A stretch of DNA of 32,000 nucleotides from Kineococcus radiotolerans SRS30216 = ATCC BAA-149 (GCF_000017305.1 NC_009664.2:3270001-3302000), one strand, 5' to 3'; numbered from the stretch's first letter, positions 11,663 to 32,000 are shown. Made by a program: numbers and translations. The notes: generated from the sequence alone by a model not told the origin.

Positions 11663-13120
11663 CTACGCGCGGGCCTCCTGGCGCCGGACCGCGGAGCGGC
11701 CCAGCAGCGCGACGACGACGACGCCGACCGCGAACGCGAGCAGGACCCCGAGGTTCGCGTAGGCCCAGGTGCCCTCCCGGCCGCCGATCGGGCCGAGCAG
11801 GTAGCCCTGCCAGGTCAGCCAGCCGGCGCCGGAGTTCGTCACCAGGCCCCACCCGAGGAACGTGGCGACGAGCATCGTCCCCACCGCGAGGGGACGCACC
11901 GAGCCGTAGCGCCCGCGGGGGTCCAGCAGCTCGGCCTCGGCGTAGTCGCCCCGGCGCATCGCCAGGTCGGCCAGGAAGATCCCCGCCCAGGCGGCGATCG
12001 GCACGCCCAGGGTGATGAGGAACCCCTGGAACGGGACCAGGAAGTCCTGCGAGAAGAACGCGATGTAGACCGCGCCGGCCACCATGAGGGCGCCGTCGAC
12101 GAGGACGGCCACCGGCCGCGGCACCCGCAGGCCGACGTTCAGCAGCGCCAGGCCGGAGGAGTAGATGTCCATGACCGCGCCGCCGACGAGACCGAGGACG
12201 GCGACGACGACGAACGGGACGAGGAACCACGTCGGCAGGATGCCGGTGAGCGCCCCCACCGGGTCCTGCGCCACCCGCGCGCCCAGGTCGGGGGAGGACC
12301 CCACCAGGAGCGCGCCGAAGACCAGCAGGACGGCCGGGCCGATGGAGCACCCCAGCGTCGTCCAGAGCACGACCCCGCGGCTGGAGGCGTCGCGCGGGAG
12401 GTAGCGGGAGTAGTCGGCGGCCGCGTTGGCCCAGCCGAGGCCGAAACCCGTCATCACCATGGTGAACGCCCCCACGACCGCCGCCGTGCTCCCGGCGGGG
12501 ATCGCCGTGACGGCGTCGAGGTCGATGCTGCCGGCGGCGAAGACGATGTAGAGGACCGTCAGCACCGCGGTGACGACGGTGATCCAGCGCTGCATCCGCA
12601 TGATGACCCTGAACCCGAGGGTCCCGCCGAGCACGATCAGCCCCACGACGACGACGAGGGCGACGAGCTTCGTGCCGGTGCCGCCGCCCGCCCCGAGCCG
12701 GTCCAGCACGGTGGCGGTGGCCAGGACGGCCACCGCGGCCAGCGACGTCTCCCAGCCCAGCGTCAGCAGCCAGGAGACCAGCGACGGCAGCCGGTTCCCG
12801 TCGACCCCGAAGGCCGCGCGGGACAACGTCATCGTCGGCGCCGAGCCGCGCTTGCCGGCGATGGCGACCAGGCCCACGAGGACGTAGGACAGCAGCACCC
12901 CGCCGACGGAGACGAACGTCGCCTGCCAGAACGAGATCCCGAACCCCAGGACGAACGAGCCGTAGCTGACGGCGAGGACGGAGACGTTCGCGGCGAACCA
13001 CGGCCAGAACAGGTCGCGCGGGCGGCCGTGCCGCTCGGCCGCGGCGACGGCGTTGACGCCGTTCAGCTCGACGCCGACACCGCCGACCTTCGCCTCCGGG
13101 ACGACGGGGATCTCGCTCAC
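11663..13120 (-). CDS. NCS1 family permease (cytosine/purine/uracil/thiamine/allantoin/hydantoin-type)
   Basis: C-terminal 485 codons of tracked ORF 11663..14434. 12-TM architecture and an NCS1-like N-terminus (ERHGRPRDLFWPWFAANVSVLAVSYG). GTG 13120 overlaps the LLM gene's stop by 4 nt. Confidence 0.85.
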   Translation of the reverse strand: MSEIPVVPEAKVGGVGVELNGVNAVAAAERHGRPRDLFWPWFAANVSVLAVSYGSFVLGFGISFWQATFVSVGGVLLSYVLVGLVAIAGKRGSAPTMTLSRAAFGVDGNRLPSLVSWLLTLGWETSLAAVAVLATATVLDRLGAGGGTGTKLVALVVVVGLIVLGGTLGFRVIMRMQRWITVVTAVLTVLYIVFAAGSIDLDAVTAIPAGSTAAVVGAFTMVMTGFGLGWANAAADYSRYLPRDASSRGVVLWTTLGCSIGPAVLLVFGALLVGSSPDLGARVAQDPVGALTGILPTWFLVPFVVVAVLGLVGGAVMDIYSSGLALLNVGLRVPRPVAVLVDGALMVAGAVYIAFFSQDFLVPFQGFLITLGVPIAAWAGIFLADLAMRRGDYAEAELLDPRGRYGSVRPLAVGTMLVATFLGWGLVTNSGAGWLTWQGYLLGPIGGREGTWAYANLGVLLAFAVGVVVVALLGRSAVRRQEARA

Positions 13121-14508
13121 GGGGTCTCCTCGGGGACGGGGTGGCGGTACCGGGCCGCCGGGTGGTCGGGGGGCAGCCGGCGGCGGCCCGCACCGAAGAT
13201 CGCTTCTCGCAGCGTACGTCCTGGGGCGTCCCCGCCGGGGGCCGGCGCCACCAGCCCGCGCCGGCGCAGTTCCGGCACCACCTGCTCGCAGAACTCCCGG
13301 TAGGAACCCGGCACCACGAAGGGGGTGAGGTTGAAGCCGTCGACGCCGCTCTCCTCGACGAGGCGCTCCATCGCGTCCACGACCGCGGTCGCCGTCCCGG
13401 TGAACACGAACTCGCGCATCCCGAACCGGAGGAAGTCCGCCCTCGCGCGGGCCACCGTCTCGCCCCGGTACCGCTCGACCTGGGTCCGCCCGCCCTCCGT
13501 CCGCACGTCGGAGAAGTCGCCCCGGGGGTCCAGCGCGGACAGGTCGACGCCGGTCATCGAGGCGTAGTACGCGCGGGCCGCCTCCTGGTCCACCCAGGAC
13601 AGGTACTCCTCCAGCCGGGAGCGGGCGTGGTCCTCGTCGCGGCCGAGGACCACGCTCAGCCCCACCAGGGTGCGCAGCGCGTCCGGGCCGCGTCCGCGCC
13701 GGGCGGCCCGGGCGCGCAGGTCCTGCACCTGCGCGCGCAGGGTCGCGGCGTCGCGGCCCTGCAGGAACACGACCTCGGCGTGGGTGGCGGCGAACTCCCG
13801 GCCGCGTTCGCTGGCCCCGGCCTGGAACACGACCGGGGTGCGCTGCGGTGAGGGCTCGACCTTGAAGTACCCGTCGCAGCGGAAGTACCGGCCGTGGTGG
13901 TGCACCTCGTGGACCCGGCGCGGGTCGGCGTAGCGGCGGGCCTGCCCGTCGTGCAGGACGGCCGCGTCCTCCCAGCTGCCCTCGAACAGCCGGTAGCTGA
14001 GCTCGAGGTGCTCGTCGGCCATGTCGTAGCGCTCGTCGTGCGGGGCCAGCGGGGCCCGCCCGTGCAGGTCGCTGACGACCGGCGAGGACGTGGTCACCAC
14101 GTTCCAGCCGATCCGGCCCCGGGTGAGGTGGTCCAGCGTCGCGAACCGGCGGGCGTTGGGGTAGGGCCCCTCCAGGCTCGTGGAGGACGTCACGGCGAAC
14201 CCCAGCCGGCGCGTCACCGCCGCCATCGCCGGGACGAGCAGCAGCGGGTCGTTGGTGGGCATCTCGACGCCCTGCTCGAAGGTGACGTCGGGGGTGGTGC
14301 CCCCCAGCACGGGGTAGCCGGGGGAGTCGGCGAGGAACAGCAGGTCGAAGCCGCCGTCCTCCAGCAGCCGCGCCAGCGACGTCCAGTGCTCGAGGTCCAG
14401 GTAGCGGTCGGTGTGCTGCTCCGGGTGGGCCCACAGGCCCTGGCTGGTGAGGTTCGGGGCGTTGATCTCGAAGGCGCTGAGCAGCAGCGGGGGCCGCACG
14501 GGGTTCAC
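13117..14508 (-). CDS. LLM-class FMN-dependent monooxygenase, NtaA/DszA/SnaA subfamily
   Basis: C-terminal 463 codons of tracked ORF 13117..15591. N-terminus LLLSAFEINAPNLTSQGLWAHPE..., length and internal blocks (GRIGWNVVTS, VVFQAGASERGREFAA) are typical of the approximately 450-aa NtaA/DszA group. GTG 14508 overlaps the deaminase stop by 4 nt. Confidence 0.85.
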   Translation of the reverse strand: MNPVRPPLLLSAFEINAPNLTSQGLWAHPEQHTDRYLDLEHWTSLARLLEDGGFDLLFLADSPGYPVLGGTTPDVTFEQGVEMPTNDPLLLVPAMAAVTRRLGFAVTSSTSLEGPYPNARRFATLDHLTRGRIGWNVVTTSSPVVSDLHGRAPLAPHDERYDMADEHLELSYRLFEGSWEDAAVLHDGQARRYADPRRVHEVHHHGRYFRCDGYFKVEPSPQRTPVVFQAGASERGREFAATHAEVVFLQGRDAATLRAQVQDLRARAARRGRGPDALRTLVGLSVVLGRDEDHARSRLEEYLSWVDQEAARAYYASMTGVDLSALDPRGDFSDVRTEGGRTQVERYRGETVARARADFLRFGMREFVFTGTATAVVDAMERLVEESGVDGFNLTPFVVPGSYREFCEQVVPELRRRGLVAPAPGGDAPGRTLREAIFGAGRRRLPPDHPAARYRHPVPEETP

Positions 14509-15515
14509 CCGGCGCGGCCCAGCCAGGCGAGCAGGCCCGCGCCGAGGCGGTGGCGGGTCGCGGGGCTCATGCCCTCGATCCGCAGGCCGTGCCCGGCGAG
14601 CGCCGCGAGGTCCTCGTCGGCCAGTCCCCAGACCTCGCGCGCGACGGCGTACTGGTCGCTGACGCCGCGGCCGAACCACAGCTGGTCGTCGGCGTTGAGG
14701 GTGATCCCGACGCCCGCGGCGTGCAGGGCGGGAGCGGGGTGGGAGGCGAGGTCGGGGACGATCCCCAGCGCCACGTTGGACACGGGGGCGACGTCGCAGA
14801 CGACGCCCTCCTCGACCAGGCGCCGCACGAACGCGGGGTTCTCCACCGAGCGGACGCCGTGGGAGATGCGGGTGGCGCCCAGCACGTCGAGGGCCTCGGC
14901 GACGCACTCCCAGCCCCCGGTCTGCCCGGCGTGGGCGACGACGGGCAGGCCGGCGGCCCGGGCCGCGGCGGCCGCGGCGGCGAACCGGTGCAGGCCGGAG
15001 GGCTCCTCGAAGCCGGCCGTCCCGAAGGCGGTGACCCCGCGGCCGGCGAACTCGACGGCGACCGCGGCGAGCTCCGCGGCGATCGGCTCGTCCTGGTCGG
15101 TGTTGACCGTGAGCAGCGCCCCGACCTCCACGCCGAGCCGGGTGCCGGCCTCGCCGAGGGCGTCCACGACGACGCGGGTGACCTCGCGCAGGCTGCCCAG
15201 CCGCGGGGCGTAGAGCTGGGGTTCGATGGCGGGTTCGAGGTAGACGACGCCCTCGGCCGCCTCCTGGGCGACCAGGGCCCGGCACAGCTCCGCGAGGTCG
15301 TCGAGGTCGGCCACGAGCGCCGGGACGCGACCGTAGGCCTCGAAGAACCGCCAGACGTCGGGCCACCCCTCGCCGGTGGCGGCCGGGCCGCCGCGCACGG
15401 GCAGGTCGACCGGGGCGCCGCGCCGGCGGGCGAGCTCCAGCACGGCCTCCCGCGGGTAGGACCCGTCGAGGTGCGCGTGCACGTGCACCTTGGGCAGGGC
15501 GGTCAGGGAACGCAC
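14505..15515 (-). CDS. Adenosine/AMP-deaminase-fold amidohydrolase with atypical HAGQ motif
   Basis: C-terminal 336 codons of tracked ORF 14505..16388. ADA-family metal-site blocks are present: PKVHVHAHLDGS (HxH), VAHAGQ, ISHG, LNADDQ. Start GTG 15515 puts HxH at residues 13/15, as in known ADAs. A minus-strand TACGTT lies 7 nt upstream, suggesting a leaderless mRNA. Confidence 0.8.
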   Translation of the reverse strand: MRSLTALPKVHVHAHLDGSYPREAVLELARRRGAPVDLPVRGGPAATGEGWPDVWRFFEAYGRVPALVADLDDLAELCRALVAQEAAEGVVYLEPAIEPQLYAPRLGSLREVTRVVVDALGEAGTRLGVEVGALLTVNTDQDEPIAAELAAVAVEFAGRGVTAFGTAGFEEPSGLHRFAAAAAAARAAGLPVVAHAGQTGGWECVAEALDVLGATRISHGVRSVENPAFVRRLVEEGVVCDVAPVSNVALGIVPDLASHPAPALHAAGVGITLNADDQLWFGRGVSDQYAVAREVWGLADEDLAALAGHGLRIEGMSPATRHRLGAGLLAWLGRAG

Positions 15516-15570
15516 CCTCCACAACGTAGGGGCGCGGGCGCCGCGTGTCGCAGGAGCGCTCGTTCTGGGA

Positions 15571-15589
15571 GCATCCATCCCGTGGATGC
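15571..15589. promoter_or_regulatory. LysR-type T-N11-A box with dyad symmetry (GCATCCA-N5-TGGATGC)
   Basis: Perfect 7-bp inverted repeat read directly. The inner TCCATCCCGTGGA satisfies T-N11-A. It is centred about 65 nt upstream of the predicted leaderless start of the deaminase operon, in the divergent lysR spacer; this is the classical LTTR recognition-site position. Confidence 0.6.
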
Positions 15590-15632
15590 ACGCGGGGGTG
15601 AGCGCGGTGGTGAGCGCGGGGGCGAGCTGGAC

Positions 15633-16505
15633 GTGCGGTCCCTGCGCTACCTGGTGGCGGTCGCCCGGGAGCGCAGCTTCACCGCGGCCGCCGCGTCGCT
15701 GCAGGTCTCGCAGCCGGCGCTGAGCCAGTCCATCGCGCGGACGGAGCAGCTCGTGGGGGGCCGGCTCGTCGTCCGCGACGCGCGCGGGGTGGCCCGGGAG
15801 GGCTCCGCGCTGACCCCGGCGGGCCAGGCGCTGGTGGCGGACGCGGCGCGCGTCGTCGAGCTGCTCGACCGGGCCCTGGTCCGGGCCCGCCGCACCGCGG
15901 CGGAGGGGGAGCGGGAACGCCTCGCCGTGGGCATCGGGACCTCCACCCCGCGCTGGGTGTCGACCCGGCTGGTGCAGGCCTCCCAGGAGAGCCCTGACCT
16001 CGACGTGGTGCTGCGGCACGTGCCGTGGGGGCAGGAGGTCGCCGGTCTGGTCGACGGCCGGGTCGACGTCGTCTTCGTGCACGCGGCGCCCGGTGAGGTG
16101 CTCGACGAGCGGGTGCGGGCGGTCCACGTCGCCGACACCCGGCGGATCGCGGTGTTCGCCGCCGGTCACCCGCTGGCCGGGCGGGCCTCCCTCGACATCG
16201 CCGACCTCGACGACGAGCCCATCGTCGACGCCGCCTCCGGCCGCGAGACGTGGCTCGTCGAGCCGCGGCCCTCCGGGGCGGTGCCGCGCGTGGTGGGCCC
16301 GCCCGCCTCGACCGCCGAGGAGATGCTCGCCCTCGTCGCCTCCGGCGCGGGCATGGCCATCACGGCCGAGGCGGTCGCCGCCGCCCACCGCTCCGACGAC
16401 CTCGCCTACGTGCCGCTGCGGGGGCTGGAGCCGCTGCGGCTGCTGCTGCTGGCCCTGGCCGACGACGGGCGGCCGGCGGTGGAGGACCTGCTCGCCTCGT
16501 TCTGA
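15633..16505 (+). CDS. LysR family transcriptional regulator
   Basis: C-terminal 290 codons of tracked ORF 14550..16505. N-terminal wHTH LRYLVAVARERSFTAAAASLQVSQPALSQSIARTE. Divergent from the deaminase operon. Start GTG 15633 was chosen from the family N-terminus; the exact start is uncertain. Confidence 0.85.
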   Translation: MRSLRYLVAVARERSFTAAAASLQVSQPALSQSIARTEQLVGGRLVVRDARGVAREGSALTPAGQALVADAARVVELLDRALVRARRTAAEGERERLAVGIGTSTPRWVSTRLVQASQESPDLDVVLRHVPWGQEVAGLVDGRVDVVFVHAAPGEVLDERVRAVHVADTRRIAVFAAGHPLAGRASLDIADLDDEPIVDAASGRETWLVEPRPSGAVPRVVGPPASTAEEMLALVASGAGMAITAEAVAAAHRSDDLAYVPLRGLEPLRLLLLALADDGRPAVEDLLASF

Positions 16506-16682
16506 GGGGCCGGGGGAGCGCGCCGCCCCGCCGTCAGCGCCCGAGCAGGTTCACCGCGACCGTCGCGGCCAGGGCCACCGCGGACACCGGCGCCCGGACG
16601 GCGCGGGCGACGCTGGCGTGGGCCGAGGAGGCCCTTGCCGAGCTGGACCCCCCGGCCCGGGCGGGCACGTAGGATCGCGCCG

Positions 16683-17402
16683 GTGAGCTCCCGCGTCGCG
16701 CTGCCGGCCGCCCCGGCGCGGGAATCGCTCGCCGATTCCGTGCACGCCTCGCTGCTGACCTGGCTGATGGACGGCGGCGCGGCCCCCGGCTCGCCGCTCA
16801 GCATCGACGGCCTCGCCCGCGACCTGGGGGTCTCCCCGACGCCGGTGCGCGAGGCCCTGGTGCGCATGGAGTCCACCGGTCTGGTGGAGCGGGCCGCGAT
16901 GCGCGGGTACCGCGTCGCGGGGATGCTCTCGCGCGAGGAGATCGACCAGCTGATGGACGCGCGGCTGCTGCTGGAGTGCCACAACGTCGCCCTGGCGGCG
17001 CAGCGGGTCGAGGAGGACCTGCTGGTGCGGTTGTCCGCGACCGTGGAGCGCATGGCGGTGGCCCCCCGGGGGCCCTCGTTCGCCGACTACCGCGACTACC
17101 ACCAGGCCGACAACGAGTTCCACCGCCTCCTCAACCGCGCCGGTGGCAACGGCTTCCTCGCCGACGCCTTCGAGGGGCTCAACGGGCAGCTGCAGCGGTT
17201 CCGGCTGCGGGCGCTGGGGCAGGGGGTCACCGACGCCGACCTCGCCGTCGCCGAGCACGTCGCGGTGGTCGACGCCCTGCGCGTCCGCGACGGCGACGCC
17301 GCCGCGGCGCGGATGCGCGAGCACCTCGAGGCGGTGCGCTCGCGCGCCCTCGACGACCGCGCGGCGGCGGGGCTCGACGCGGCCCCGGAGCCCGCCCCCT
17401 GA
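16683..17402 (+). CDS. GntR family transcriptional regulator, FadR subfamily (FCD domain)
   Basis: wHTH LSIDGLARDLGVSPTPVREALVRMESTGLVE plus a C-terminal FCD-type helical domain. TAGGAT (16670-16675) lies 7 nt upstream of GTG 16683, suggesting a leaderless start. The tracked TTG 16635 start was not preferred. Confidence 0.8.
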   Translation: MSSRVALPAAPARESLADSVHASLLTWLMDGGAAPGSPLSIDGLARDLGVSPTPVREALVRMESTGLVERAAMRGYRVAGMLSREEIDQLMDARLLLECHNVALAAQRVEEDLLVRLSATVERMAVAPRGPSFADYRDYHQADNEFHRLLNRAGGNGFLADAFEGLNGQLQRFRLRALGQGVTDADLAVAEHVAVVDALRVRDGDAAAARMREHLEAVRSRALDDRAAAGLDAAPEPAP

Positions 17403-17429
17403 GGACCGCCGCCCGGCGGCGCGGTTCGT

Positions 17430-17454
17430 TTGACACCCACATCCTATTGGATGT
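17430..17454. promoter_or_regulatory. Putative promoter -35 (TTGACA) and palindromic operator ACATCC-TATT-GGATGT upstream of the MFS gene
   Basis: TTGACA at 17430-17435. Perfect 6-bp inverted repeat at 17439-17454. This is the most A/T-rich patch in the area, lying between the GntR stop (17402) and the MFS start (17499). Confidence 0.5.
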
Positions 17455-17498
17455 TGTATCGGCGCGCCGTCGACGTCGCCGACCCAGGAGTGAGCGCA

Positions 17499-24777: not shown

Positions 24778-24806
24778 GTCCGGCCACCCCGTAGCACCAG
24801 CACCAC

Positions 24807-24846
24807 CCGCGAGGGCGGTCCTCCCCCCGGAGGGCCGCCCTCGCGG
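24807..24846 (+). terminator. Strong hairpin after groEL (intrinsic terminator)
   Basis: CCGCGAGGGCGG (24807-24818) is the exact reverse complement of CCGCCCTCGCGG (24835-24846), with an inner CCTCC/GGAGG extension. Followed by CGTTCTCC. Confidence 0.65.
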
Positions 24847-24929
24847 CGTTCTCCCCGCCGGGGGCGATGACTTCCGGCGCCGCGTGCGGTCGGATGGGTA
24901 CGACCCGCCCCCGGCGACAGGAGACCACC

Positions 24930-25493
24930 GTGCGCACCCTCATCGTCACCGCCTTCACCTCCCTCGACGGCGTCGTGGAGGCACCGGGCGGCGAACCCGG
25001 CTACCGCAACGCCGGCTGGACGTTCCGGACCGTCGAGTTCGACGAGGCCGTCTACGAGATCAAGGGCCGCGAGCAGGAGGAGACCACCGCCCTGCTGCTG
25101 GGCCGCACCAGCTACCAGGCCTTCGCCCCGGTCTGGCCGACCATGGACGACTTCGCCGGGTACAACGCCATGCCCCGCTACGTGGTGTCCACCACCCTCG
25201 AGCAGGACGACGAGCGCTGGCCCGCGACGATCCTGCGCTCCCTCGACGACGTCGCCGCGCTCAAGCGGACCGACGGCGGCCCGATCGCGGTGCACGGCAG
25301 CGCGACCCTGGCCCGCTCGCTGGCGGACGCGGGTCTGGTGGACCGCTACCACCTGCTGGTCTTCCCCGTCCTGCTCGGGGCCGGGAAGCGGCTGTTCAGC
25401 GACACCGACAAGGACGAGCAGCGGCTGGCGGTCCTGGAGGCCCAGACCTACGGCAACGGGGTCACCAAGCTGGTCTACGACGTCGTCCGGTGA
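24930..25493 (+). CDS. Dihydrofolate reductase family protein (RibD C-terminal-domain-like reductase)
   Basis: 187 aa from GTG 24930 (AGGAGA 5 nt upstream). Pattern VRTLIVTAFTSLDGVVEAPGG..., LLGRTSYQAF, PIAVHGSATLARSL, DRYHLLVFPVLLGAGKRLF is typical of the RibD_C/DHFR-like family. Confidence 0.8.
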   Translation: MRTLIVTAFTSLDGVVEAPGGEPGYRNAGWTFRTVEFDEAVYEIKGREQEETTALLLGRTSYQAFAPVWPTMDDFAGYNAMPRYVVSTTLEQDDERWPATILRSLDDVAALKRTDGGPIAVHGSATLARSLADAGLVDRYHLLVFPVLLGAGKRLFSDTDKDEQRLAVLEAQTYGNGVTKLVYDVVR

Positions 25494-25531
25494 GCCCCGG
25501 GGGACGGCCTCGCGTCGATTACCGTCTCCCC

Positions 25532-26824
25532 GTGAGCACCTCGACGACGTCGTCCACCGGCACCACCACCACCGCCCCCGGCGTGAACTGGGCCCGCAAC
25601 TACGCCTTCAGCGCCGGCACCCTGCACCGGCCCACGACCCTGGACGGGCTGCGGGCCGTCGTCGGGTCCACGGCGCGAGTGCGGGCGGTGGGAACGCGCC
25701 ACTGCTTCAACGACATCGCCGACTCCCCGGGCGACATGGTGACCCTGGAGGCGCTGCCGGTCGAGGTGGAGGCCGACTCCGCCGCCGGGGCGGTGCGGGT
25801 GAGCTCGGCGACCAGCTACGGCGTCCTGGCCCAGCGGTTGCAGGACGCCGGCCTGGCGCTGGCCACGATGGCCTCGCTGCCCCACATCAGCGTCGGCGGC
25901 GCGGTCGCGACCGCGACCCACGGGTCGGGGGACCGGACGCAGAACCTCGCCGCGGCCGTCCGCGCGGTGGAGCTCGTCACCGCCGACGGCGACGTGCGGC
26001 GCGTGCAGCGCGGGGACGGGGAGTTCGCCGGCAGCGTCGTCGCCCTGGGGTCCCTGGGCGTCGTGACCCACCTGGAGCTGGACGTGCTGCCGACCTACGA
26101 CGTGCGCCAGGACGTCTACTCCGGGTTGTCGTTCGAGGCGTTCACCGAGAACTTCGACGCCGTCACCTCCGCGGCCTACAGCGTCAGCGTCTACACGAAC
26201 TGGATCGGGACCGACACCACCCAGGTGTGGCTGAAGACCCGCACGAGCGACGCCGCCGAGGCCCCCGCCGAGCTGTTCGGCGCCGTCCGCGCGGGCGAAC
26301 CCCTGCACCCGCTGCCCGAGGTCGACGTCCGCAACGCCACCGAGCAGCTCGGCGTCCCCGGGCCCTGGCACGAGCGGCTGCCGCACTTCCGGTTCAGCTT
26401 CGCCCCCAGCAACGGCGAGGAGCTCCAGGTCGAGTACCTCGTCGCCCGCGAGAACGCCCTCGCCGTCGTCGCCGCGCTGCGCGAGCTCGGCCCCTCGATC
26501 GCGCCGCTGCTGCACATGTGCGAGATCCGCACCGTTGCCGCCGACGACCTGTGGCTCTCCAACTCCCACCAGCGCGACAGCGTCGCCTTCCACTTCACCT
26601 ACAAGCAGCGCCAGGCCGAGGTCATCGCCGCCATCGCCGAGGTCGAGGCGGCGCTGTCCGGGCTGGACGTGCGCCCGCACTGGGGCAAGCTGTTCGCCGC
26701 CGACGCGCAGCGGATCGCGGGCCTCTACCCGCGCTTCGACGACGCGCGGGCGCTGGTCGCCCGCCACGACCCCCGCCGGAAGTTCGCCAACGCCTACACC
26801 GACCGGGTCGGGCTGACCGCCTGA
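25532..26824 (+). CDS. FAD-binding oxidase of the D-arabinono-1,4-lactone oxidase / alditol (xylitol) oxidase family
   Basis: C-terminal 430 codons of tracked ORF 24743..26824. FAD_binding_4-like N-half (VRAVGTRHCFNDIA, HISVGGAVATATHGSG) and an ALO-type C-half ending RPHWGKLF. TACCGT lies 6 nt upstream of GTG 25532 (leaderless pattern). Confidence 0.8.
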   Translation: MSTSTTSSTGTTTTAPGVNWARNYAFSAGTLHRPTTLDGLRAVVGSTARVRAVGTRHCFNDIADSPGDMVTLEALPVEVEADSAAGAVRVSSATSYGVLAQRLQDAGLALATMASLPHISVGGAVATATHGSGDRTQNLAAAVRAVELVTADGDVRRVQRGDGEFAGSVVALGSLGVVTHLELDVLPTYDVRQDVYSGLSFEAFTENFDAVTSAAYSVSVYTNWIGTDTTQVWLKTRTSDAAEAPAELFGAVRAGEPLHPLPEVDVRNATEQLGVPGPWHERLPHFRFSFAPSNGEELQVEYLVARENALAVVAALRELGPSIAPLLHMCEIRTVAADDLWLSNSHQRDSVAFHFTYKQRQAEVIAAIAEVEAALSGLDVRPHWGKLFAADAQRIAGLYPRFDDARALVARHDPRRKFANAYTDRVGLTA

Positions 26825-26888: not shown

Positions 26889-27500
26889 TCAGAGCGGCAG
26901 GGGGTCGCGTCCCACGTCGTGGAACTCGACCTCGGCCTCGGCCAGGCGCGTCTCCAGCGCGTCGAGGCCGCGGTCGAGGAGGAACCGGCGCTCCCCCTCG
27001 TGCAGGGGCACCGCCTGCAGCCAGCGCACCTCGGTGCCGCCCTGGAACTCGTCGGCCTCCAGCCGGTAGCGCGCCAGCCGCGGGAAGGTGCCCGGGGCGG
27101 TGAGCAGCAGGTGCTCGGTGCGCCCGCCCAGCAGGTCGGCGACGACGCCGGGGAACACCGTCCCGGGACGCAGCGGCCACGCCTCGCCGACGGCCGCGAA
27201 CGCCGACGCCACCAGCAGCCCCGTCGCCAGCCGGGGTTCCACCCCGCCCAGGACGGTCACCAGCTCGACCCGGACGTCGCTGCCGTCCACCCGGTTCGGC
27301 GCGCGGTGCAGCGTCAGCGTCGAGACGGAGGTGAACCCCGCCGCCGGGGCGTCGCGGGCCGTCAGGACGTCCAGGGACCGCGTCCCGTCCCGGTTGAGGT
27401 GCTCCTCGATCTCCGGGCGCCCGTCGGGGACGAGCTGCTCCCCGACGAACCGGGCCATCCGGACCTCGGCGTCGGTGGGCGGGGGCGCCTCGGAGCTCAC
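26889..27500 (-). CDS. Suppressor-of-fused (SUFU-like) domain protein
   Basis: C-terminal 203 codons of tracked ORF 26889..28622. Overall pattern ([22 protein letters not shown]..., VELVTVL..., [12 protein letters not shown]..., [16 protein letters not shown]) resembles bacterial SUFU-domain proteins as I remember them. GTG 27500 overlaps the cofG stop by 4 nt. Confidence 0.6.
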
Positions 27501-28789
27501 GCGACCACCCGGCCGACGGGCCGCGCCGACTCCTCGGCCAGACCCGTCACCGGGTCCGCGAGCGCCGCGAGGGCGGGGTGGAGGGCGGCGTCGATCCAGC
27601 GCGTGGACCCGGCGAGGGCGTCGAGCACGAACCGCGGGTGGGCGGTGAGGCGCTCGGCGAGGCGGAACCCCGCCGCCCGGGTCGTGCGGGCCAGGTCGTC
27701 CAGCTGCGGCCAGGGGCGCTCGGGGTTCACGTGGTCGGGGGTCAGCGGGGACACCCCGCCCCAGTCGTCGACGCCGGCGGCGAGCAGCTGCTCGCGCTGA
27801 CCGGGGTCGGACAGGTTCGGCGGGGCCTGCAGGGAGACCCCCGGCCCCAGCAGCAGGCGGGCGACGGCGATCGTGGCGAGGTACTCGGAGTGGTCGAGGT
27901 CGTCCTCGCCGCGCATGGCGGTGTCGTCCTTGGCGCGGAAGTTCTGGACGATGACCTCCTGCACCCCGTCGAACTCCGCGACGACGTCGCGGATCGCGAG
28001 GATCGAGTCCACGCGCTCGGCGGGGGTCTCCCCGATGCCCACGAGGATCCCGGTGGTGAAGGGGACCCCGGCGCGCCCGGCGTCGCGCAGCACCCGCAGC
28101 CGCAGGGCGGGGTCCTTGTCGGGGGAGCCGTAGTGGACCTGGCCGGGTTCGGTCCACAGCCGGGTGGAGGTGGTCTCCAGCATCATCCCCATCGAGGGGG
28201 CCAGCGGCCGCGAGGCCAGCAGGTCCGCGTGGGTCATGACCCCGGGGTTGAGGTGCGGCAGCAGCCCGGTCTCGTCCAGGACGCGGCGCGCCAGGTGCTG
28301 CACGTACTCCAGGGTGGAGGCGAAGCCCCGCGCCGTCAGCCACGCCCGGGCCGCGGGCCAGCGGTCCTCGGGGGCGTCGCCGAGGGTGAACAGCGCCTCC
28401 TTGCAGCCCATCGCCGCGCCCTCGCGGGCGATGGCCAGGACGTCGTCCTCGGACAGGTACAGCACGGGCAGCCGGCCGGGGACGGTCGCGAAGGTGCAGT
28501 AGTGGCAGCGGTCCCGGCACAACCGGGTGACGGGGACGAAGACCTTGCGGGAGTAGGTGACGACCCCGGGCCGGCCCGCGGCGGCCATGGCCGCGTCGCG
28601 CACCGGCGCGGCCAGCGCGCACAGCGCGCCCAGGTCCTCGCCGCGCGCGTGCAGGAGGACCTCGGCGGTGGCGGCGTCGAGGTCGCCGCCCGCCGCGGCA
28701 CGCAGGGCGGCGGCGAGGTCGCCGGGCGGGGGGACGGCGGCCGCCGGGGCCGCGTGCCGGCGCCGGGGGGAGGGGAGGGAGTCGCTCAT
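27497..28789 (-). CDS. cofG: FO synthase subunit CofG (stand-alone homologue of the FbiC N-terminal half; radical SAM)
   Basis: C-terminal 430 codons of tracked ORF 27497..29470. Intact radical-SAM motif [14 protein letters not shown]. Long colinear similarity to the remembered M. tuberculosis FbiC N-half ([104 protein letters not shown]). GGAAGG RBS before ATG 28789. Confidence 0.88.
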
Positions 28790-28806
28790 GGTGCCTTCCG
28801 GTCCGG

Positions 28807-29433
28807 TCAGGTCAGCGGGATCGCCGCGGCGGCGAGGGCCTCGCGGGTGCGGGGGCCCACCCCCAGGGCGAGGGCCTCGGCCAGGTCCTCGACGGTGTCG
28901 ACGTCGCGGCGCAGCGAGGGCAGGGCCGCGCTCAGCGGGCGCGCCCCGGCGTCGAGGTGGGCCCGGGCCGAGCCCGGCCCGAAGCGGTGCGGGGGAGCGC
29001 CGTCGCGGTCGGCGAGCAGCACGCTGCCCCGGCCGTCGGCGTCGGTCACCAGCGCCGGTCCCGGCCGGGCCAGGGCGTCGGCGAGCGCCGCCCCCAGGTC
29101 CTCCGCGCGCAGCGCCGGCAGGTCGCCGAGCAGGACGGCCGTCGGACCGCGCTCCAGGCACGTCACCCCGGCCTCCACGGCCGCCGCGAGACCGGGCCGG
29201 CCCGCGGAGACGGTGACGGCTCCCGCGGAGCGCGCGGCGGCGGTGACCTCGGGGTCGTCGCTGACGCAGACGACGAGCCCCACCCCGGGGGTGCGCAGGC
29301 ACACCGCGAGGCAGTCCAGCGCCATGGCCAGCGCCAGGGACCGGCGGGCGGGACCGGGCAGGGCCAGCCGGGACTTCGCCCCGTCCCCGCCCTTGACGGG
29401 GACGACGACCCGCCAGCCGCTCACGTGCGTCAC
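28807..29433 (-). CDS. fbiD: 2-phospho-L-lactate / phosphoenolpyruvate guanylyltransferase (CofC/FbiD)
   Basis: C-terminal 208 codons of tracked ORF 28807..30294. N-terminus [17 protein letters not shown] and LLGDLPAL are typical of CofC/FbiD. GGGGGAG lies upstream of GTG 29433. 17 nt upstream of cofG. Confidence 0.8.
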
Positions 29434-29463
29434 CGGGGGAGTCTCCCCCACGGCCCCGGGGCG

Positions 29464-29490
29464 GCGACACCTGCCCCGGGTCCCTACCCT
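29464..29490 (+). promoter_or_regulatory. Putative promoter for a leaderless moaE-cofH-like-BVMO transcript
   Basis: TACCCT (29485-29490, TANNNT) lies 6 nt upstream of GTG 29497, with no RBS. A weak -35-like GCGACA (29464-29469) has a short 15-nt spacer. Confidence 0.35.
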
Positions 29491-29496
29491 CGGTCC

Positions 29497-29949
29497 GTGA
29501 GCACCCCTCCGCGGTTGACCGTCCCCGCCCGCCGGGTCGTGCGGACCGCCGTCGGCCCCGCGCCCCTCGACGTCGACGAGCACGCCCGCCTGGTCGGTGA
29601 CCGCGCGGCCGGGGCGGTCGTGACCTTCGCCGGGGTCGTCCGCGACCACGATCACGGCCGCTCGGTGCGGGAGCTGGAGTACGTGGGCCACCCCACCGCC
29701 GACGCCGTGCTGGCCGCCGTCGTCGCCGAGGTCGTCGCCGACAGCCCCGTGGACGCCGTCGCGGTCAGCCACCGGCTCGGGCACCTGGCCGTGGGTGACG
29801 TGGCGCTGGCCGTCGCCGTCTCCGCCGCGCACCGGGGGGAGGCGTTCGCGGTGTGCGCCCGGCTGGTCGACGAGGTCAAGGACCGGCTGCCGGTGTGGAA
29901 GCACCAGCACTTCGACGACGGCACCTCGGAGTGGGTGGCCTGCCCGTGA
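29497..29949 (+). CDS. moaE: Molybdopterin synthase catalytic (large) subunit MoaE
   Basis: C-terminal 150 codons of tracked ORF 28957..29949. [66 protein letters not shown] parallels E. coli MoaE (GAVVTFTGKVRNH..., HRIGEL, SAHRSSAFEA..., APFWKRE). Confidence 0.85.
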
Positions 29950-30965
29950 GCGCGGTGAGGGCCGCGCTGGCCGCGGCCGCCCGCGACCACCGCGCGCTCG
30001 GCGACGCCGAGGCGGTCGCGCTGCTGGGCGCCGACGGGGCGGAGCTGGAGGAGCTGGCCGGGCTCGCGGACGCGGTGCGCCGGGCCCGGGTGGGCGAGGA
30101 CCTGACGTTCGTGGTGAACCGCAACCTCGACGGCACCCGCGTGGGCGACCCGGCCGCGCGCGGCCTCCTGCACGACCTCGTGCAGGAGGCCGCCGCGCTC
30201 GGGGCGACCGAGGTCTGCGTGCAGGGGCCGGTGCCGGCCTCCGCGGGGCCGGAGGGCTACCTGGAGCTGGTCGAGGCCGTCGCGCGGGCGGCACCGGGGA
30301 TCCACCTGCACGCCTTCCGGCCCCCGGAGCTGCTGGAGGCCGCGCACCGCCGCGGGTCGAGCCTGCGCGCGTTCCTCGTCGCGGCCGCGGGGGCGGGGCT
30401 GGGGTCGGTGCCCGGCACGGCCGCGAAGGTCCTCGACGACGACGTCCGGACCGCGCTGAACGGCGGGGTGCCCGACCTGCCGGTGGCGCGCTGGGTGGAG
30501 ACGGTCGTCACCGCGCACGAGGTGGGGCTGACCTCCACGAGCACCCTGGTCCACGGCGGTCCGGAGACCCCGGCGCAGCAGGTCGCGCACCTGCGGCTGC
30601 TGGCCGGCGTGGCCGCGCGGACGGGGGGCTTCACCGAGTTCATCGCCATGCCGTCCCCCGCCGGCCCCGGCCCGTCGCCGCGCGCCACGCGGGCGCTGCA
30701 CGCCGTGGCGCGGCTGCTGCTGGACGGGTACGTCGACCACGTCCAGGCGGCCTGGCCCAAGCACGGCCCGGACCTGACCGAGCAGCTGCTGCGCGGCGGG
30801 GCCGACGACCTCGGCGGGTTGCTGCTCGACGGTTCGCTGGACCCCGCGGCCGGCCAGGAGGCGGGCACCACCCTGAGCCGCGAGGGGGCCGCGGCGCTCG
30901 CGGACCGGCTGGGCCGGCCGCTGCGCCAGCGCACGACCCGCTACGGCGAGCCCGCGGTCCCGTGA
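29946..30965 (+). CDS. CofH-like protein (homologue of the FbiC C-terminal half) lacking the radical-SAM CxxxCxxC cluster motif
   Basis: C-terminal 339 codons of tracked ORF 29853..30965. Colinear with the remembered FbiC C-half (LTFVVNRN, GATEVCVQG, HLHAF, PGTAAKVLDDDVR, TAHEVGL.S.ST, RTGGFTEF, ADDLGG, GRPLRQRTTRY). The segment that should carry NINFTN.C...C..C is replaced by LDGTRVGDPAARGLLHDLVQEA, about 18 residues shorter. The protein has only one Cys. GTG 29946 overlaps the moaE stop. Confidence 0.8.
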   Translation: MSAVRAALAAAARDHRALGDAEAVALLGADGAELEELAGLADAVRRARVGEDLTFVVNRNLDGTRVGDPAARGLLHDLVQEAAALGATEVCVQGPVPASAGPEGYLELVEAVARAAPGIHLHAFRPPELLEAAHRRGSSLRAFLVAAAGAGLGSVPGTAAKVLDDDVRTALNGGVPDLPVARWVETVVTAHEVGLTSTSTLVHGGPETPAQQVAHLRLLAGVAARTGGFTEFIAMPSPAGPGPSPRATRALHAVARLLLDGYVDHVQAAWPKHGPDLTEQLLRGGADDLGGLLLDGSLDPAAGQEAGTTLSREGAAALADRLGRPLRQRTTRYGEPAVP

Positions 30966-32000
30966 CCGGCGCCTCGGCCGGTCCCGCGACCGAGGTCGAC
31001 GTCGCGGTCGTCGGTGCGGGGTTCGCGGGGATCGGCGCGGCTCTGCGGCTGGCCCGCCGCGGCCGGGAGAGCTTCGTCGTCCTCGAGCGCGGGGACGACG
31101 TGGGCGGCACCTGGCGGGACAACACCTACCCCGGGGTCGCCTGCGACGTGCCCTCGCACCTGTACTCGTTCTCCTTCGCCCCCAAGCCGGACTGGTCGCG
31201 GGTGTTCGCGCCGGGGGCGGAGATCCAGGAGTACCTGCGGGCCTGCGCCCGGGAGGTCGCGGGGAACCTCCGGCTGCGGACCGAGGTGCTGCGGGCGCGG
31301 TGGGAGGGTTCCCGCTGGGTCCTGACCACCTCGACGGGGCCGGTGCGGGCGCGCGTCCTGGTCCTGGCGGCGGGGCGCCTCACCGAACCCCGCACCCCCG
31401 CGCTGCCCGGTCTGGACGGGTTCGACGGGCCGGTGTTCCACACCGCGCGCTGGGACCACGCCGTCGACCTCGCCGGGGCCCGGGTCGGGGTCGTCGGGAC
31501 GGGGGCCTCCGCGGTGCAGGTCGTGCCCCGGATCGCGGGGACCGCGGCCCACCTGACCGTCTTCCAGCGCAGCGCGCCCTACGTCGTCCCGCGCGGGGAC
31601 CGGGAGTTCAGCGCGGAGGAGCTGGCGGGGTTCGTCGCCGACCCCGCCCTGCCGGCGGCGCTGCGGGAGGAGACGTTCACCGAGATGGAACGGGGCCTGG
31701 CCGCGCGCCGCCTCGTGGCGCAGGCCCTGGACCCGTTGCGCCGCAGGGCGCTGGACCACCTCGCGGCGCAGGTCCCGGACCCGGTCCTGCGGGCCGCGCT
31801 GACCCCGGACTACGAGGTCGGGTGCAAGCGCGTCCTGCTCTCCGACGACTTCTACCCGGCGCTGGGCCGCGACGACGTGACGCTGGTCGCCTCGGCGCTG
31901 CGCGGGTTCGAGGGCCGGACGGCGCGCGCCGCCGACGGTTCCCGCCACCCCCTCGACGTGCTCGTGCTGGCGACGGGCTTCCACGCCGCCCGCCAGCCCT
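30962..32000 (+). CDS. Type I Baeyer-Villiger / flavin-containing monooxygenase (EthA-like), 3'-partial
   Basis: Not in the ORF track because it runs off the window; I translated it by hand with no stop from GTG 30962 to 32000. FAD site VAVVGAGFAGIG, DVGGTWRDNTYPG, BVMO fingerprint FDGPVFHTARWD (FxGxxxHxxxW[P/D]), NADPH site VGVVGTGASAVQ. The start overlaps the cofH-like stop by 4 nt. Confidence 0.85.
   Translation, partial: MTGASAGPATEVDVAVVGAGFAGIGAALRLARRGRESFVVLERGDDVGGTWRDNTYPGVACDVPSHLYSFSFAPKPDWSRVFAPGAEIQEYLRACAREVAGNLRLRTEVLRARWEGSRWVLTTSTGPVRARVLVLAAGRLTEPRTPALPGLDGFDGPVFHTARWDHAVDLAGARVGVVGTGASAVQVVPRIAGTAAHLTVFQRSAPYVVPRGDREFSAEELAGFVADPALPAALREETFTEMERGLAARRLVAQALDPLRRRALDHLAAQVPDPVLRAALTPDYEVGCKRVLLSDDFYPALGRDDVTLVASALRGFEGRTARAADGSRHPLDVLVLATGFHAARQP

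Follow-up and report, generated by a model that had tools for sequence, protein, structure and literature searches.

The sequence considered here is a window of 32,000 nucleotides (nt) from Kineococcus radiotolerans SRS30216 (NC_009664.2:3270001-3302000), whose last part, from position 26889 to the end, carries two separate genes related to the two halves of FO synthase. The products of these two genes, CofG and the cofH-like protein, are 100% identical to database entries under the name of this species. FO (7,8-didemethyl-8-hydroxy-5-deazariboflavin) is the chromophore of F420 and of photolyases. As most listed open reading frames (ORFs) are shadows at a G+C content of about 75%, a frame plot of codon-position GC (GC3) was used, which supported exactly six genes in this part and ruled out chance ORFs. 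The minus strand encodes FbiD, CofG and a SUFU-domain protein, and the plus strand MoaE, a CofH-like protein and a flavoprotein resembling type I Baeyer-Villiger monooxygenases (BVMOs) (Table 1). The object of interest is the module made of CofG, a CofH-like protein devoid of the cluster of radical S-adenosylmethionine (SAM) enzymes and the BVMO, rather than the Kineococcus rearrangement or the moaE and SUFU neighbours.

A first-pass annotation of the same DNA had described this gene content on each strand, with the radical-SAM motif of CofG intact, and had placed cofG and the cofH-like gene apart on opposite strands; the frame plot, together with profile hidden Markov model (HMM) scores and motif evidence, bore this out. 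The start and stop coordinates likewise agreed with its reading of the junctions, namely a spacing of 17 nt between fbiD and cofG (28790-28806) and 4-nt GTGA overlaps between the SUFU gene and cofG (27497-27500), between moaE and the cofH-like gene (29946-29949) and between the latter and the BVMO gene (30962-30965). cofG starts with an ATG at 28789 with GGAAGG ahead of it, and the start of fbiD is uncertain, GTG candidates being found at 29424, 29433 and 29451. The full length of the BVMO, 487 aa, was seen in locus L001.

Fused FbiC is one polypeptide scoring at least 1018 bits on NF006687. Here two genes are found, the products of which reach 650 bits (CofG) and about 311 bits (cofH-like). 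The match of CofG covers positions 23-418 of the 849 of this profile and that of the cofH-like protein resumes at 477 and ends at 837, so that the two genes part at the inter-domain linker of FbiC, as had been proposed. When the NCBIfam HMMs were run on the ORFs as the first-pass annotation advised, CofG and CofC passed their cut-offs and the cofH-like protein remained below those of CofH, with 248.3 bits against 374.1 for TIGR03551 and 218.5 against 426 for NF005609. In CofG, which has a Pfam Radical_SAM match, CRDRCHYC lies at residue 91 and is identical in all Kineococcus orthologues; with fused FbiC from Oryzihumus and Pedococcus, which belong to other orders, the protein shares 72-73% identity over their N-terminal halves. 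No fused Kineococcus FbiC was found among the top matches of the Kineococcus CofG search.

The cofH-like protein contains a single cysteine in total, no CxxxCxxC motif and no Pfam Radical_SAM match. In an alignment to canonical CofH domains, 'VVNRNLD...' replaces the canonical 'NRNINFTNVCxxxCxFCAF', and a deletion of about 18 residues relative to canonical 'NRNINFTNVCYTGCRFCAF' removes the cluster loop. VVNRNL, directly ahead of this deletion, is an invariant motif of the family's own. Further family-wide changes were observed at radical-SAM motif positions (QGG to QGP, HAFSP to HAFRP, PGTAAEIL to PGTAA(K/R)IL), while the remaining CofH sequence is kept. Judging from its sequence, SAM cleavage by this protein is implausible since the cluster motif is lost. 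An AlphaFold2 model built on a 77-sequence alignment reached a pLDDT (predicted local distance difference test) of 93.3 and a pTM (predicted template modelling score) of 0.92, and Foldseek superposed it on the radical-SAM barrel of MqnE (6XIG; TM-score 0.83, E = 6e-20) as well as on HydE, BioB, ThiH and HydG. The model is a radical-SAM-type (beta/alpha) barrel with the C-terminal region of CofH and MqnC, and 77 invariant positions of the alignment are spread over the barrel. R125 and K272 are invariant residues of the protein, and a K/R stands in place of the canonical Glu. The scaffold is thus intact and constrained; only the cluster and SAM apparatus is gone.

The same features are found far beyond Kineococcus. 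CxxxCxxC was missing in all 120 of the closest database homologues (identities of 56-100%), which originate from Kineococcus, Actinoplanes, Actinomycetospora, Nocardia, Trebonia and a large number of metagenomes. In GTDB, 185,579 species genomes were scanned and at least 193 relatives found, including Kineococcus, Gordonia, Actinomycetospora, Nocardia, Actinoplanes and Nocardioides; this number is a minimum because two family-specific peptide patterns filtered the scan. K. radiotolerans itself was not among the matches, the best one being Kineococcus sp. SYSU DK003 (80% identical), and the locus counts given below refer to the best 80 of these 193 relatives. When 1.8 billion cluster representatives were searched exhaustively with a profile, 12 or more of the best 35 clusters (50% identity) proved Cys-less; fused forms and lineages of greater divergence are among them, and the same signature changes are found in every one. 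Within Kineococcus, the ratio of non-synonymous to synonymous substitution rates (omega) was 0.28-0.51 for the cofH-like gene, 0.17-0.40 for cofG, 0.32-0.50 for the BVMO gene and 0.31-0.61 for fbiD, values that are meaningful only by comparison because the extreme GC3 bias compresses the synonymous rate. Mean pairwise distances over 56 loci were 0.37 (cofH-like), 0.36 (BVMO) and 0.32 (CofG). The cofH-like family is therefore widespread and conserved, and the missing cluster characterises the family as a whole instead of marking decay, as indicated by the 120 Cys-less homologues, the 193 or more genomes, the low omega and the confident fold model.

The partner of the cofH-like protein is a flavoprotein, the translation of which carries GAGFAG, GGTWRDNTYPGVACD, FDGPVFHTARWD, GTGASA and GCKR. 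The FxGxxxHxxxWD fingerprint FDGPVFHTARWD stands between the two Rossmann motifs GAGFAG and GTGASA, and the contexts of the catalytic Asp and Arg are kept, so that the monooxygenase can be assigned by sequence to the type I BVMOs. Matches to solved BVMOs range from 1e-55 to 1e-66 in E-value, with steroid monooxygenase 4ap3 at 6.2e-66, phenylacetone monooxygenase 1w4x at 2.3e-60 and cyclohexanone monooxygenases (CHMOs) at about 1e-56; the nearest solved relatives act on benzyl or aryl ketones and steroids. The best NCBIfam match is PtlE, with 214 bits far under its cut-off of 1100. A BVMO homologue lies directly after the cofH-like gene, on the same strand, in 79 of the 79 loci whose contig continues, across more than ten genera. 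In 75 loci the start of the BVMO gene could be placed, and 67 of these offer a start codon that shares 4 or 8 nt with the end of the cofH-like gene. Pairwise distances of the two proteins are correlated (r = 0.90, and 0.78 between genera), which indicates that they have been inherited as a unit. This invariant feature had been overlooked in the first-pass annotation, which listed MoaE, the SUFU-like protein and the BVMO alike as partners foreign to the canonical F420 pathway and proposed to follow the coupling of moaE and BVMO in related genera. The BVMO is indeed a real non-canonical partner; MoaE and the SUFU protein are not part of the system, moaE being adjacent to it in Kineococcus only.

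Two observations were made around the pair in other genera. In nearly all Actinomycetospora loci, the module is followed at about 5 kb by a second BVMO-like gene, only distantly related (27-29% identity) to the BVMO of the window, with an alpha/beta-hydrolase-like ORF and an AMP-ligase-like ORF in its vicinity. In Actinoplanes, the gene of a 151-aa regulator of the MarR family shares 4 nt with the start of the cofH-like gene; the match of the regulator to HpaR is weak (41 bits, below cut-off), and the position of its gene hints at a ligand-regulated expression of the pair in this genus.

Several lines tie the module to FO and F420 synthesis, namely the adjacency of CofG, a fusion in Nocardioides, fbiD in Kineococcus and fbiA-fbiB in metagenome-assembled genomes (MAGs). 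CofG adjoins the cluster-less cofH-like gene in 57 of the 80 loci. The order is CofG, cofH-like, BVMO in Actinomycetospora, Nocardioides, Trebonia and many MAGs, and cofH-like, BVMO, CofG in all 12 Gordonia and one MAG; the arrangement is divergent or convergent in Kineococcus, and in a Solirubrobacteraceae MAG an archaeal-type CofG lies 5 kb downstream of the pair. In two Nocardioides species, a single ORF of 797-800 aa joins an intact CofG to a cluster-less CofH domain, with one CRDRCHYC, and is followed by the BVMO gene; the fused protein scores 979.5 bits on NF006687, just under the cut-off of 1018. A further real fused Cys-less form is P0362, and four other candidates (P0147, P0148, P0196 and P0234) were rejected as frameshifted or partial sequences. 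In a group of MAG loci the module stands beside fbiB (618 bits on FbiB) and fbiA (359 bits on FbiA). One cluster of the neighbour analysis (cluster 2) was discarded as antisense shadow ORFs. K. radiotolerans encodes F420-dependent FDR-A reductases (PMC3288000). Separately, a 674-aa protein (P0140) appears to be a fusion of FbiD/CofC and CofG, with Pfam CofC and NTP_transf_3 matches ahead of Radical_SAM and CRDRCHYC at residue 331; its identity to the CofG of the window is 75%.

In Gordonia the gene order is typA (888 bits), an LpqW-like binding protein, mshB (341 bits), cofH-like, BVMO, CofG, a ferredoxin and an aminotransferase. This is the layout of G. bronchialis, too, the cofH-like protein of which has no cluster motif and reads FVVNRNFDTAAVA. 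As a Mycobacterium MAG has a fused fbiC after the same run of TypA, binding protein and PIG-L genes, the Gordonia trio occupies the fbiC position; this order presumably corresponds to M. tuberculosis Rv1165, Rv1166, Rv1170 and Rv1173. The FbiC of Rhodococcus qingshengii was unsuitable as a synteny control, its neighbourhood being different. A search with Gordonia CofG listed about 95 Gordonia entries, stand-alone proteins of 408-437 aa that include those of G. bronchialis, G. terrae and G. polyisoprenivorans. No fused FbiC from a Gordonia isolate was found in this search, the only fused entry labelled Gordonia being a partial one from a MAG, while the same search did list fused FbiCs of Rhodococcus and Mycobacterium at 67-70% identity. 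In some Nocardia and one Rhodococcus, a stand-alone CofG of 446-459 aa lies alone at an fbiC-type locus (PIG-L/MshB, then two bPH_2 genes, CofG, ferredoxin and aminotransferase), and no CofH domain, cofH-like gene or BVMO gene was found near it at these loci. Such strains therefore need the CofH function from somewhere. Other Nocardia carry the pair elsewhere than at the fbiC locus; among the sets compared, the accessions of Nocardia with stand-alone CofG and of Nocardia with the pair did not overlap.

The remaining neighbours appear to be a matter of Kineococcus. By tblastn over the loci, adjacency of MoaE, the SUFU gene, the sugar-lactone-oxidase-like (ALO-like) gene and FbiD was found in Kineococcus only, and not in every Kineococcus: K. 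rubinsiae (L028) and K. siccus (L020) have a different arrangement, in which moaE is not directly upstream of the cofH-like gene. As the BVMO gene is closely followed by moaD and moaA (L001 and L002), moaE belongs to an ordinary molybdopterin cluster; its product scores 79.3 bits on the E. coli-type equivalog NF007959, under the cut-off of 175. MoaE, SUFU, ALO and RibD_C were rejected as functional partners on account of this genus-restricted adjacency and of moaA and moaD next door. Directly upstream of the SUFU gene lies a pair formed by a RibD_C-domain (dihydrofolate-reductase-like) gene and an FAD_binding_4/ALO gene overlapping by 19 nt; the ALO-like gene is near the module in several Kineococcus and in no other genus. 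Just beyond the window end, the gene of a 145-aa MauE/DoxX-like membrane protein separates the BVMO gene from moaD-moaA on the opposite strand. A MAG labelled Janthinobacterium lividum (L022, P0025/P0130) carries a Kineococcus-like module at 64-88% identity in a MoaE/MoaD/MoaA context; although binned under this betaproteobacterium, the sequence is almost certainly a mis-binned actinobacterial contig. Elsewhere in the window, an unrelated cluster (11663-16505) looks like a nucleobase or amine catabolic unit.

Table 1. Features of the window and of related loci (positions in the window unless a locus is named).
Feature	Position	Strand	Evidence or remark
SUFU-domain protein gene, 203 aa	26889-27500	minus	Pfam SUFU (PF05076) 73.2 bits, gathering threshold 25
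cofG, radical-SAM half of FO synthase as a gene of its own, 430 aa	27497-28789	minus	TIGR03550 439.8 bits, cut-off 213.35
fbiD/cofC, F420-pathway guanylyltransferase	28807-~29433	minus	TIGR03552 115.4 bits, cut-off 105; Pfam CofC match
Intergenic region fbiD/moaE, divergent, 63 nt	29434-29496		measured from start codons; presumed site of both promoters
moaE, molybdopterin synthase large subunit	29497-29949	plus	Pfam MoaE (PF02391) 116.4 bits, gathering threshold 23.4
cofH-like gene, 339 aa	29946-30965	plus	TIGR03551 248.3 bits, below cut-off 374.1
Type I BVMO-like flavoprotein gene	30962-32000	plus	runs past window end; first 346 of 487 codons within window
RibD_C-domain gene and FAD_binding_4/ALO gene	24795-26824
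Cytosine/purine-type permease	11663-~13174	minus
NtaA/DmoA-family FMN monooxygenase	13117-~14583	minus	TIGR03860 455 bits
Adenosine-deaminase-family gene	14505-~15620	minus
LysR regulator, divergent	~15600-16505	plus
MauE/DoxX-like membrane protein gene	L001:3519-3956
Second BVMO-like gene, Actinomycetospora	L031:~16298-17455		example
MarR-family regulator, Actinoplanes	L014:9537-9992; L010:9540-9995
CofG-CofH-like fusion, Nocardioides bruguierae	L067:8669-11062
CofG-CofH-like fusion, Nocardioides sp. GY 10127	L084:8648-11050
Stand-alone CofG, Nocardia sp. RB20	L089:8001-9341
Stand-alone CofG, Rhodococcus sp. HNM0569	L090:8001-9365
Stand-alone CofG, other loci	L093:6001-7380; L094-L097

From these observations, CofG, the cluster-less CofH and the BVMO appear to form a widespread module that stands in for FbiC. 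The reading favoured here, to which about an even chance is given, is an FO synthase in three parts: the cluster-less CofH, always encoded together with the BVMO and usually in translational coupling with it, would with this partner take over the step of the radical-SAM CofH. Canonical CofH delivers the 4-hydroxybenzyl unit of tyrosine to C5 of 5-amino-6-ribitylaminouracil (PMC8498797). In the route proposed, a 4-hydroxyphenyl carbonyl compound derived from tyrosine, such as 4-hydroxyphenylpyruvate, 4-hydroxyphenylacetaldehyde or a related ketone, would be converted by the BVMO, at the expense of NADPH and O2, into a 4-hydroxybenzyl ester. Phenylacetone monooxygenase makes benzyl acetate by the same type of reaction. 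The ester would be a latent p-quinone methide, an electrophile that the enamine carbon of the uracil could well attack, and the cluster-less barrel would bind this uracil and guide the coupling at its C5, giving the normal CofH product. CofG would keep its radical-SAM chemistry, and ring closure of the CofH product would yield FO. A wider statement, tentative and somewhat short of even, is that whole genera of aerobic Actinomycetota, among them Gordonia, Kineococcus and Actinomycetospora, dispense with a radical-SAM CofH in making FO and rely on an activated donor made by the BVMO and on its coupling by the cluster-less barrel.

Several points weigh against this three-component synthase. The substrates named for the BVMO are a guess. 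Oxygen tolerance is an incomplete rationale for replacing CofH only, because CofG remains an O2-sensitive radical-SAM enzyme. A stand-alone canonical CofH may be encoded elsewhere in Kineococcus or Gordonia genomes, and no record of FO or F420 production by either genus was found in the searchable literature. In 23 of the 80 loci, from Actinoplanes, Nocardia, Pseudonocardia and Saccharopolyspora, no CofG lies within 10 kb; these genera are expected to carry an ordinary FbiC, and the pair may there be redundant or have another role. The comparative nature of the omega values, mentioned above, is to be counted on the same side. A different route or product, the third option of the first-pass annotation, may also be at work.

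Such a product is at the heart of an explanation that is considered unlikely, albeit not negligible, in which a canonical CofH or FbiC is encoded elsewhere and the pair is an accessory or tailoring one that makes, modifies, salvages or degrades another deazaflavin- or pterin-like metabolite; the CofH-type ligand bound by the pair would then be the diaminouracil, the CofH product or FO. Tailoring is a typical role of BVMOs, the MarR-family gene overlapping the cofH-like start in Actinoplanes suggests conditional expression, and the loci without nearby CofG belong to genera generally regarded as ordinary F420 producers (PMC8498797, for Nocardia). Nevertheless, the place of the module in Gordonia is exactly that of fbiC, with no fused FbiC from an isolate among about 95 entries, Nocardioides has the cluster-less domain and CofG in one protein, and the module stands beside fbiA-fbiB in MAG loci. 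The Nocardia and Rhodococcus that have only a stand-alone CofG at the fbiC locus also need a CofH function, which does not fit with a mere accessory role. It is more improbable still that the cofH-like protein is a dead scaffold or regulator of CofG and the BVMO-fold protein an NADPH:FAD reductase serving the CofG cluster, the CofH reaction being left to another enzyme. Given that radical-SAM chemistry depends on a reductant, this explanation would account for the FAD and NADPH motifs of the BVMO; it would also account for the loss of the cluster and of several SAM-motif positions from a cofH-like protein that keeps the fold, and for the joint inheritance of all three proteins. On the contrary, the 77 invariant barrel positions and an evolutionary rate equal to that of true enzymes argue for a ligand-binding or catalytic role, the full Baeyer-Villiger fingerprint with its active-site Asp and Arg contexts would be superfluous in a plain reductase, and the pair also occurs far from any CofG.

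Finally, the first-pass annotation had spoken of a "degenerate" cofH in a possibly "decaying" locus, with an inversion breakpoint inside an ancestral fbiC. The opposite strands, the break at the FbiC linker and the score of the cofH-like protein under the CofH family cut-off are what would be expected if a Kineococcus inversion had broken fbiC and its CofH half were degenerating. This account is refuted, with next to no probability left to it: the ORF is intact in every one of at least 80 species, the same Cys-less features are common to several orders, omega is well under 1 like that of the neighbours, and the structural model is of high confidence. An inversion accident in Kineococcus does not hold either, given the collinear or fused versions of other genera, and the divergent Kineococcus layout is a local rearrangement of an older module.

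Field reviews hold that FO synthesis universally needs two radical-SAM domains and that Actinobacteria use fused FbiC. What whole genera have at the fbiC position is a system with one domain unable to bind its cluster and tied to an oxygenase. Public annotation names the cofH-like homologues "FO synthase" or "FO synthase subunit 2", and the cluster-less difference is therefore hidden. A review of F420 makes no mention of Gordonia and Kineococcus (PMC8498797). No description of a cluster-less CofH or of a link between CofH and a BVMO was found in the searchable full-text literature, the coverage of which is incomplete, and the cofH-like/BVMO form of the FO-synthase system is, as far as this literature shows, previously undescribed. 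If the pair replaces CofH, it would represent a new enzymology, a benzylation driven by a BVMO on a repurposed radical-SAM scaffold, and the first half of deazaflavin biosynthesis would have a route without radicals that was not known before. Genome-based calls of F420 producers would change, as HMM calls of cofH or fbiC fail or mislead here, and the pair may allow a less O2-sensitive and SAM-sparing heterologous production of FO and F420, now limited by FbiC/CofH. If the pair makes something else, it would point to an unknown deazaflavin- or uracil-derived metabolite.

Compared with the FbiC and CofG+CofH synthases (NF006687, TIGR03550, TIGR03551), the CofG of the window is a bona fide member in an F420 biosynthesis context, and the cofH-like protein derives from the C-terminal domain of FbiC, of which it keeps the N-terminal helical region, the barrel and the motifs GATEVC.QG, HLHAF, GLGS.PGTAA, TAH..GL and TGGFTEF. 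The family differs from them by the absence of the CxxxCxxC loop, changed SAM-motif positions, a score below the CofH cut-off and an obligatorily attached BVMO, as well as by a variable gene order, with CofG first, CofG last, divergent or fused to the cofH-like protein. With type I BVMOs (1W4X, 4AP3, CHMO), the monooxygenase shares the FAD and NADPH Rossmann motifs, FxGxxxHxxxWD and GGxWxxxxYPGxxxD, but it is shorter (487 aa against about 540-550) and is always encoded right after a CofH-derived protein. In the same way, the cofH-like protein resembles MqnE and MqnC of the aminofutalosine synthase family (6XI9/6XIG, the nearest solved structure) by its radical-SAM TIM barrel and by sequence similarity over residues 87-332, whereas MqnE has the cluster and uses SAM and the protein of the window lacks both the cysteines and the GG of the SAM-amino motif.

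O2-dependent and radical-SAM enzymes are known as alternatives for one and the same step in the pairs HemF/HemN and AcsF/BchE. Should the proposed model be right, the module would resemble them in that an O2- and NADPH-dependent flavoenzyme route takes the place of a radical-SAM step in aerobes. It would differ from them in that the old scaffold is kept as a cluster-less partner and that only one of two radical steps is replaced.

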